A stretch of DNA of 64,000 nt from Candidatus Oxydemutatoraceae bacterium. GTDB lineage: Bacteria; Pseudomonadota; Gammaproteobacteria; Poriferisulfidales; Oxydemutatoraceae. The notes below the pieces were generated by a model. The model did not search any database. It saw nothing but the letters and a program-made list of their open reading frames with translations, and was not told where the DNA came from. Below are positions 1,955 through 3,234 of this stretch, piece by piece (the first letter of the stretch is position 1; each line of letters opens with the position of its first letter). The stretch covers positions 111,216 through 175,215 of the forward strand of contig OZ243039.1 of the NCBI GenBank assembly GCA_965212025.1. Direction: 5' to 3'. Position numbers and translations under genes: made by a program.

Positions 1955-3234
1955 ATGAACACAGTCGGTTTTACTAGTAAATATGCAAGTCTGTCTAACA
2001 CCAAGGAGGTCAATTCCTTGGCAGAAGTGACCAGAATCGGAGATAAGGACTTTGCAGTCGTCCAGCATGGTCAGCGCTGGCACAACCGTCTGTCGTGCTG
2101 GATTAAAGACAGCGTACGCTCCTTCTTTTCGCCTTTGCGAAAAAGCACTCCCAATGAGGCTTGGGAACGGCTGAGTGCAGACTTGGGTGGCGACACGTCT
2201 ATTGAAACAGATGATAAGCTACTTGCCCAAACAAAAATCAAAAGATGGCAAAAAGAAGGGGTTCCCTTACGAATACTGCACGTCAGGCAGTTGCTTCGGC
2301 AAATGAATGAACAGTTTGACTCCCAACCGCGCACCCCACAGAATTTTCCCCAGTTTAAGGATGGGAATAAATTTGAAGTAGAAATCCAGGATCTCGATCA
2401 AGCAGTTGAGGACACCTCAAGTTCGGGAATCGTATCCCTTAAAGCTGTTGAAGAGAATGACACAAGTGCGGTGAATTCCGATCAAGCAGATTTCACCGAA
2501 AATCCGGAAACCCAATCCCTTGGCGTTGCAGAGACGGGTGTTACGGCTTCAACAGAGGTCACCGAATACCAGAAAACCCAATCCATTGGCGTTGCAGAGA
2601 CGGGTGTTACGGCCTCAACAGAGGTCACCGAAGACCAGAAAACCCAATCCCTTGGCACTTATGTGAAAAAAGATCAAAGTGTAGAAATCACGGGCTCCAC
2701 TCAAGCAGCAGAGACCTCCGAAAATCTGGGATCAGATTGGGAAGAGCTATCCTTTGAAGATGCGCAGTCAGCATCACCCGAACCCCCCGAACCCGAAGAA
2801 GAAATATTTCAGAGTTTTAAGAACCCCAACTTGGAAGCCGATCTGGCAAGTGCCATGAATTCGGTAGTCACGCCTGTCTTTCAGACCCCCCCCCCGCCCC
2901 CAAATCCGGAACACCTTGTCTTGATAAGGTGACAAATGAATTTCTGACACAAGATAGCAATTGGATAACGCCAGATGTCTTCGACGCAATCGCGGAGTTG
3001 CTCAACAAGGATGGAATGGGAACGAGCGCCAAATTCAGGGAAGATACTACATATAACAAAGCGAAGCTCTGCGCTGAGGTCATGGCGGAATGTAACAAAA
3101 TTACAAATGAGTCGAACAAGCCCACTAACACAGAAAACTTCAAGGCTAACTTTAGACAAGCCTTTGATCAAATTACCAAGGAAAACCCGAATTGGTTTGA
3201 GCGTGTGGATGGCGGTTGGGATACGGCAATTTAG
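1955..3234 (+). pseudogene. Paralog family member copy 3. It is split into two ORFs (1955..2932 and 2929..3234) by a frameshift located in a poly-C tract. It is either a pseudogene or a phase-variable gene
   Basis: The N-module (1955-2400) is intact, and the C-module sits in the +2 frame starting at 2929. The only shared sequence between the two frames is the C10-G-C5 run at 2886-2901. The linker contains an internal 57-bp x2.3 in-frame repeat (2508-2650). Confidence 0.55.

Follow-up and report, generated by a model that had tools for sequence, protein, structure and literature searches.

Seven tandem copies of a rare gene family around a tRNA-Leu/tRNA-Cys pair

The window, as we call the whole 64-kb stretch of DNA that was analysed, opens with a tandem array of seven copies of one gene family. 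Copies 4 to 7 lie beyond a minus-strand tRNA-Leu/tRNA-Cys pair that directly follows copy 3. In copy 3, two open reading frames in different frames meet near a long poly-C tract. The features of the array and of the sequence around the tract are as follows.

1-840, plus strand: copy 1, a divergent member truncated where the window begins; its complete protein is P0009 (368 aa)
917-1864, plus strand: copy 2, an intact 315-aa paralog that served as the reference for collinearity
1955-2932, plus strand: upstream ORF of copy 3 (P0001, 325 aa), made up of an N-module of ~115 aa, a linker that is acidic and rich in repeats, and a tail of 14 aa read out of frame, PPPPPNPEHLVLIR
2493-2656, plus strand: 66-nt tandem repeat (2.5 copies) in the copy 3 linker
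2821-2932, plus strand: stretch in which both frames lack stops and which contains the tract; going upstream, the second frame first meets a stop at 2818 (TAA)
2886-2895, plus strand: C10 homopolymer holding the frame-shifting one-base deficit, from the sequence and the lone alignment gap against the intact Porisulfidus gene
2896-2901, plus strand: G (2896) and C5 (2897-2901), read in the downstream frame as Ala-Pro (GCC CCC); since these bases already match the register of the C-module, the shift does not lie here
2896-3234, plus strand: C-module of copy 3 in the second frame, with homology from 2896, the listed ORF from the GTG at 2929 and zero internal stops
2929-2932, plus strand: GTGA, shared by the stop of the upstream ORF and the start of the downstream one
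3522-3689, minus strand: tRNA-Leu(taa) and tRNA-Cys(gca), directly downstream of copy 3; a synteny anchor common to the arrays of related MAGs
4127-5009, plus strand: copy 4, a pseudogene in which the frame changes at least three times and which also has in-frame stops and an internal deletion
5100-6011, plus strand: copy 5, with a lone in-frame TAA at 5454-5456, where copies 6 and 7 have AAA, and otherwise one collinear frame
6100-7198, plus strand: copy 6, a pseudogene whose linker contains a frame change and whose C-module has a deletion; an in-frame stop lies at 7124-7126
7287-7817, plus strand: copy 7, N-module and linker, with the C-module absent

Members of the family share a layout in which a conserved N-module of ~115 aa is joined by a variable, acidic, repeat-rich linker to a conserved helical C-module of ~110 aa. 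More distant members (P0019 to P0022) share the N-module only. The family is rare, with 6 matches among 5.8 billion clusters and 24 among 1.84 billion protein representatives, and it is both multi-copy and confined to a few symbiont-type MAGs. Searches of Pfam, NCBIfam and PDB sequences returned no match. The family is previously undescribed; the frameshift event itself is of a well-known kind.

Modeling with AlphaFold gave a poor full-length structure (pLDDT 53) and no confident model of the N-module. The C-module was modeled as a six-helix bundle (pLDDT 76), for which no fold match was found in the PDB (best E 0.78, TM <0.3). By eye, the N-terminus shows no hydrophobic stretch, and consensus scans for promoters and terminators yielded background levels. 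The C-modules of the paralogs are 35-49% identical; that of copy 3 shows 35-44% identity, compared with 41-49% for its peers. This slightly higher divergence is weak evidence for relaxed constraint on copy 3.

Downstream of the array lie DUF1326 (7876-8556) and the genes at 8838-9812 and 9852-10847. Their proteins share 89-93% identity with the counterparts in Porisulfidus, a known sponge symbiont (PMC12988363), and 77-90% identity with the counterparts in a Ca. Oxydemutatoraceae MAG. The host bacterium is closely related to sponge symbionts. In all three genomes (the window, the Porisulfidus MAG and the Ca. Oxydemutatoraceae MAG), the tRNA-Leu/tRNA-Cys pair is embedded in the array. Family proteins are 44-68% identical compared with 89-93% for the flanks, indicating that the family evolves much faster. 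Its rarity, its syntenic arrays around the tRNA pair and this far faster evolution arguably make the family more interesting than the tract.

The closest intact relative of copy 3 is P0002, a 634-aa protein from the Ca. Porisulfidus MAG. In Porisulfidus, the unit consisting of a P0002-like gene and the tRNA pair is duplicated. The tRNA pair of the window is 98% identical to that of the second Porisulfidus unit, in which the gene is broken, and 90% identical to that of the first. Because of this duplication, and because the window's tRNA pair is nearer to the second unit, we treat P0002 as a co-ortholog and not as a strict one-to-one ortholog.

Decay is widespread in the family. Four of the seven copies in the window (copies 4 to 7) are pseudogenes that carry a nonsense substitution, deletions and multiple frameshifts, none of them at long homopolymers. 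The Porisulfidus array has at least 15 copies, multiply broken ones among them. Together, the broken copies of the two genomes indicate that copy loss is routine in this family. We also considered whether the junction in copy 3 is a recurrent hotspot, as two Porisulfidus copies (L003, ~8631 and 12366) might have suggested. These copies share several further lesions and have C5 runs only, and so they are duplicates of one already dead unit.

The copy 3 frameshift maps to a one-base deficit within the C10 run

From the sequence as it stands, the product of copy 3 is the 325-aa protein of ORF 1955-2932 (frame 2, by position modulo 3). The 101-aa downstream ORF, 2929-3234, begins with GTG and is in frame 1. 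These coordinates and differing frames agree with the sequence-only reading, an earlier interpretation of the same DNA that had proposed a phase-variation switch here. That reading also had the two ORFs overlapping across the poly-C sequence at 2886-2901. This needs correction: the listed ORFs share just the 4 nt of GTGA (2929-2932), and what spans the tract is the stop-free stretch 2821-2932. Any +1 or -2 change within that stretch would join the two ORFs.

It is homology and not ORF overlap that pins the shift to the tract, which reads tcagaCCCCCCCCCCgCCCCCaaatcc. Frame-2 homology to the family reaches the tract (VTPVFQT), and frame-1 homology, APKSGTPCLDKV, begins at G2896. At the same junction P0002 reads FQTPPPAPKSETPKLD. 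At the DNA level, the Porisulfidus junction is TTTCAG ACCCCGCCGCCCGCTCCT AAATCT, compared with TTTCAG ACCCCCCCCCCGCCCCC AAATCC in the window. From TTTCAG to ACACC, the DNA alignment gives a spacing of 26 nt in copy 3 and 27 nt in the intact Porisulfidus gene. The lone gap in this alignment is one base long and falls inside the C10 run, not the C5 run. The earlier placement of a C10-G-C5 sequence exactly at the frameshift (C10 2886-2895, G 2896, C5 2897-2901) was therefore correct, and the deficit is now mapped within C10.

Restoring the frame also behaves as the sequence-only reading had predicted, with a +1 or -2 change fusing the ORFs into a full-length protein. A C11 tract encodes 426 aa, C8 425 aa and C14 427 aa; each of these products is collinear with the family and ends at a single terminal stop. 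C10 as assembled gives 325 aa and a separate 101-aa ORF. The tract lies at codon 311 of 426 (73% of gene length). It is thus far from the 5' end, and a shifted allele keeps the N-module and linker.

The syntenic Porisulfidus counterpart, which reads CCCCGCCGCCC at the tract site, keeps interruptions between its C runs. Four synonymous third-position changes to C (CCG to CCC twice, GCT to GCC and CCT to CCC) built the tract. Judged from this alignment, the tract is an ancestral Thr-Pro-Pro-Pro-Ala-Pro segment that has lost its interruptions and is one C short. CCC accounts for 50% of the family's proline codons, compared with 26% in the other ORFs of the window. Since half of the family's proline codons are CCC, a proline run written entirely in C needs no special selection.

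At the homologous site, other family copies from the three genomes have C5-C6 at most. Among ~25 other family copies (window, L001, L003 and L004), we found no G/C run of at least 8 nt. As far as these copies tell, the tract is specific to this lineage.

Long homopolymers elsewhere in the window leave genes intact

We compared the number of long G/C runs in the window with Markov simulations of orders 1-5. Runs of at least 10 nt numbered 2 in 64 kb, compared with 0.05-0.12 expected, and runs of at least 8 nt numbered 4, compared with 0.85-2.0 expected. This excess is window-wide and not confined to copy 3. A slippage deletion in a decaying family leaves the excess (2 vs 0.05-0.12) unexplained. 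The following long runs lie outside the array.

18384-18391: C8, in-frame in ORF 18282-19523
31328-31335, minus strand: G8, in-frame at codons 17-19 of full-length recG
48350-49798: long membrane ORF with an in-frame T9
51489-51498: G10, in-frame between the two Na_Ca_ex halves of ORF 51062-52015 (Na/Ca exchanger)

Because long G/C runs occur in-frame in recG and in the Na/Ca exchanger gene, such runs are not reserved for variable genes here.

One explanation for the deficit is an error in the consensus. The true tract would then be C11 and the gene intact, with the homopolymer under-called through long-read error, PCR slippage at low input or incomplete polishing. A one-base deficit in the window's longest C run is the classic signature of such an error, and the rest of copy 3 is intact. 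Porisulfidus MAGs have come from sponge projects working with PacBio HiFi, in some cases PCR-amplified ultra-low-input libraries, and metaMDBG (PMC12988363), and the contig of a related MAG is named ctg49616_67x_c; neither of these points is tied to the window's own assembly. The assembler metaMDBG homopolymer-compresses reads and needs polishing that fixes "mostly homopolymers" (PMC11392814).

As a control for miscalling, all 123 runs of at least 6 nt in the window were tested for the joining of long ORFs after a +/-1 change. Twelve runs were flagged, and only the copy 3 tract sits at a break in a homologous gene. Ten of the 11 other flagged runs were checked against Pfam, and these either separate adjacent complete genes or adjoin one complete domain (MrpF/MnhG, MbhD-E/MnhB, two Proton_antipo_M subunits, def/fmt, EIIA-man/HPr, DUF3108 and DUF4390). 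The flagged runs at 60334, which had no Pfam match, and at 27064, which was read by eye only, showed no sign of a split gene. Runs that break no gene include G10, T9, A9, two C8/G8 and eight A8/T8.

None of the 122 other runs breaks a gene, including the G10 of equal length in the two-domain Na_Ca_ex gene. Homopolymers in the window are therefore not miscalled systematically, and G10 has its correct length within a conserved gene. The sequence-only reading had named such miscalling, together with uniform read support for one tract length, as what would count against a switch; the window does not bear the miscalling out. The TAA substitution and the deletions in other copies cannot be homopolymer errors, and so the broken copies in the array are real. 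These results weaken the case for a consensus error, which we consider quite improbable and less likely than a real deletion.

Copy 3 carries a single lesion consistent with recent slippage

The frame of copy 3 is disrupted relative to intact homologs, and its sister copies carry independent lesions, as expected of a pseudogene in a decaying array. Its C-module is preserved. There is no stop in 101 codons, and all 17 invariant C-terminal columns are kept (17/17); these columns were taken from a six-sequence alignment that includes copy 3 itself. Across the same 101 codons and 17 columns, we found no secondary lesion downstream of the shift. The lesion is therefore young, reversible or not real, and if copy 3 is a pseudogene, it became one very recently. 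One clean lesion with the remainder of the gene intact also fits the OFF state of a phase-variable gene.

We consider the best explanation to be that copy 3, a dispensable member of a tandem family in decay, lost one C (C11 to C10) through a real and recent slippage event that could in principle be reversed; our confidence in this is about even. Synonymous changes to C would first have fused the Thr-Pro-Pro-Pro codons at the linker/C-module junction into poly-C, and slippage would then have dropped one C. The outcome would be the 325-aa protein, with N-module and linker and no C-module. The family gains and loses copies and tolerates their loss. Given that tolerance, the simplest view is that the deletion in copy 3 is the most recent of the inactivating lesions in the array.

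The C10 tract is by its nature hypermutable, and the population may well be mixed. Such hypermutability makes reversion to C11 mechanistically possible. We infer a biological origin for the deletion in place of a consensus error, a recent date and no adaptive role. Downstream of the shift, the GTGA at 2929-2932 could serve as a putative site of re-initiation for the C-module of copy 3.

A phase-variation switch is a candidate reading

The sequence-only reading took the tract as a candidate slipped-strand switch. As a contingency locus, C8, C11 and C14 alleles would make the full two-module protein and other lengths the N-module and linker, and this would diversify a host-interaction protein of a sponge symbiont. 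The anatomy of the locus agrees with that proposal. A C10 run within an ORF exceeds the cut-off used for poly-G/C tracts (at least 7), and 9-10 is the modal tract length in Campylobacter (PMC6321876). Runs this long are rare by chance, four synonymous changes toward C built this one, a +1 or -2 change yields a protein of 425-427 aa, and the downstream module of copy 3 is fully intact. The family is also fast-evolving (44-68% vs 89-93%), multi-copy and found in few symbiont-type MAGs, as host-interaction families often are.

The tract's relatives and surroundings, however, do not fit a switch. Known contingency loci are recognized by repeat length (at least 7) and by placement where a length change alters the product, which the copy 3 tract shares. 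They are also recognized by retention of the repeat in homologs and by concentration of G/C runs in variable or surface genes, which it does not. Neither the syntenic counterpart nor any other family copy in the three genomes has the tract, and long G/C runs are also in-frame in recG and the Na/Ca exchanger gene. It lies at 73% of gene length and not near the 5' end, so that the OFF state still makes most of the protein. The sister copies are plainly decaying. The lack of a Pfam, NCBIfam or PDB match and of an N-terminal hydrophobic stretch by eye gives no sign of a surface or secreted location.

We looked for variation in tract length in two ways. Scans of JGI metagenome contigs with a protein pattern and with a flank pattern at the DNA level did not find a second allele, and an exact look-up among 15 billion proteins did not find the C8, C11 or C14 products. 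The earlier proposal stands as regards anatomy, tract length and position within the ORF, and it fails as regards conservation in homologs and restriction to variable genes. Poly-G/C phase variability is defined along a continuum of mutability (PMC6321876). We keep the switch as a candidate, although it is not the likeliest reading and we regard a contingency locus as unlikely. The more specific claim, that the tract is a working switch toggling a host-facing factor between a full-length and an N-module-only form, with the C-module perhaps re-initiated at GTGA, is in our judgment doubtful.

A working switch would nonetheless matter. The symbiont population would gain heritable, reversible heterogeneity in a host-facing factor. 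To our knowledge, this would be the first case of repeat-driven phase variation in sponge symbionts. It would extend the mechanism from culturable pathogens to an uncultured sponge-symbiont lineage, and it would mark an orphan tandem family as a host-interaction factor worth study. If the tract is not a switch, which is more likely, the locus is a clean case of a lineage-specific CCC proline run becoming a frameshift hotspot in a decaying family. It would also show that read-level evidence is required before a homopolymer that coincides with an ORF break in a MAG is taken for a switch.

Frame correction during expression is at best adventitious

The frame might also be restored during expression, by a -1 ribosomal slip on C_CCC_CCC or by slippage of RNA polymerase, so that a fraction of full-length protein would be made alongside the truncated form from C10 DNA. 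The zero-frame heptamer C CCC CCC (2887-2893) re-pairs perfectly in the -1 frame, and the -1 product would read QTPPPAPKSG, identical to that of the C11 allele. A copy-3-specific 8-bp hairpin is located at 2912-2931. Frameshift stimulators usually lie ~5-9 nt downstream of the slip site, whereas this hairpin begins ~17-18 nt past it. Its folding energy is ordinary (z = -1.07; 29 of 200 shuffles fold equally well), and homologs conserve neither the tract nor the hairpin. As a programmed frameshifting site, then, the locus has the slippery heptamer and fails on spacing, folding statistics and conservation.

For the transcriptional route, the known slippage sites are mostly A/T runs. Slippage that rescues frameshifted genes at homopolymers is reported for other bacteria (PMC5009743, PMC4256274, PMC3017870). 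We regard expression-level correction of copy 3 as very improbable, a minor possibility and adventitious at best. A recent slippage deletion in a decaying family stays our preferred reading.

Comparison with known systems

The copy 3 tract resembles the poly-G/C contingency loci of Campylobacter, Neisseria and Haemophilus (PhasomeIt, PMC6321876) in that an intragenic G/C run of 9-10 nt sets the frame and the OFF state gives a truncated product. In those loci, variation from isolate to isolate is documented, tracts are often conserved across the homology group and most coding-strand runs are poly-G (PMC6321876). The copy 3 tract, in contrast, comes from one genome, is absent from homologs and lies late in its gene, and similar runs occur in housekeeping-type genes of the same window.

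A closer likeness in gene organization is found in the Cpn1054/Cpn0010-0013 genes of Chlamydia pneumoniae. These are also lineage-restricted, clustered paralogs encoding hypothetical proteins in a host-associated bacterium, with intact and fragmented copies and a frame-setting poly-C. In work attributed to Viratyosin et al. (2002) and Rocha et al. (2002), the Cpn poly-C tract reportedly recurs in several members and varies within and between strains. The family in the window is unlike the Cpn family in having the tract in only one of >30 copies, and there is no sequence homology between the two. The variability of the Cpn1054/Cpn0010-0013 genes has been described (PMC4489044).

The poly(A) frameshifts of Buchnera and Blochmannia offer another parallel, in which a host-associated bacterium tolerates long homopolymers in coding sequence and the frameshift lies exactly at the run. 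Those frameshifts are said to be rescued by polymerase slippage (Tamas et al., 2008), reportedly with transcript-level evidence and in AT-rich, reduced genomes. Theirs are A/T runs, whereas copy 3 has a C run in a genome of 53% GC.

Finally, copy 3 resembles the residual homopolymer indels of long-read metagenomes (PMC11392814, PMC9262707), in which a one-base error in a run of at least 10 nt splits a gene call. Such errors usually hit several runs per genome, whereas all the other long runs of this 64-kb window are in-frame.

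Conserved locus and rapid divergence of the array

Three genomes carry the array at one common chromosomal position, upstream of a DUF1326 gene: that of the window (1-7850), the Ca. Porisulfidus MAG (L001/L003) and the Ca. Oxydemutatoraceae MAG (locus L004). Family copy number varies among them, with at least 7 copies in the window, at least 15 in Porisulfidus and about 3 in L004. Family proteins share 44-68% identity compared with 77-93% for the flanking proteins, indicating that the family evolves unusually fast. The GC content of the array is 47.4%, below that of the remaining window (53.4%; 7851-64000).

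In all three genomes, a tRNA-Leu(taa)/tRNA-Cys(gca) pair lies within the array on the opposite strand.

tRNA genes within the array
Window, 3522-3689, opposite strand to the array: tRNA pair
Porisulfidus MAG L001, 14495-14663 and 18970-19137, opposite strand to the array: tRNA pair
L004, 9004-9090 and 11923-12087, opposite strand to the array: tRNA-Leu/tRNA-Cys

The pair and the array have been duplicated together in the Porisulfidus MAG, and L004 contains an additional tRNA-Leu. Between the window's tRNA pair and copy 4 lies a relic of the family C-terminus (3997-4038; KDKLTDAGWDPAN*), which lacks both the N-module and the body of the C-module.

Copy 3 and its junction

The two modules of copy 3 differ in their nearest relatives. 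Its N-module (1955-2320) is nearest to that of the adjacent copy 2 (917-1280; 81% identity, compared with 68% to the Porisulfidus counterpart), but its C-module (2896-3234) is nearest to the Porisulfidus counterpart (44%, compared with 39% to copy 2). This pattern of identities suggests that N-modules within the array are subject to gene conversion.

The two copy 3 ORFs are linked by a GTGA start/stop overlap at 2929-2932. An 8-bp hairpin at 2912-2931 is found in copy 3 alone; it results from the TPCLDK substitutions, the other copies having TPKLD(A/E).

In L001, a 145-nt unit, whose length is not a multiple of 3, is repeated in approximately 10 tandem copies (16821-18324). The unit corresponds to the stretch (…TFQNPLPAPEPE…) at which linker and C-module meet in a gene resembling that of P0002, the intact Porisulfidus counterpart of copy 3. 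Thus, the junction that bears the poly-C tract in the window is amplified in L001.

Other long G/C runs

Runs of 10 G or C nucleotides are far more frequent than expected, with two observed in 64 kb against a Markov expectation of 0.05-0.12. Besides the C10 of copy 3, the second such run is a G10.

Other G/C runs in the window
51489-51498: G10, in ORF 51062-52015, read in-frame (VVRGGGLG) in the interval separating its two Na_Ca_ex domains
18384-18391: C8, in-frame
31328-31335: C8, in-frame, codons 17-19 of recG (minus strand)

The 3' flanks of the two C8 runs are alike (CCCCCCCCAAGCGTT and CCCCCCCCAGCGTTT, respectively).

Partial duplications and distant relatives

L004 also contains four extra matches to the first 38 residues of the homolog of window ORF 9852-10847. 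All four lie upstream of this homolog, at 200-nt spacing (16447-17160), and represent a gene 5' end in short tandem duplication.

The distant relatives P0019-P0022 (355-571 aa) have the N-module signature in common (…QRGxxWHGRLxCWVKD…GxPxRxKHLRxLL), but their C-terminal regions are different and internally repeated. The N-module may be the defining, portable part of a wider family.
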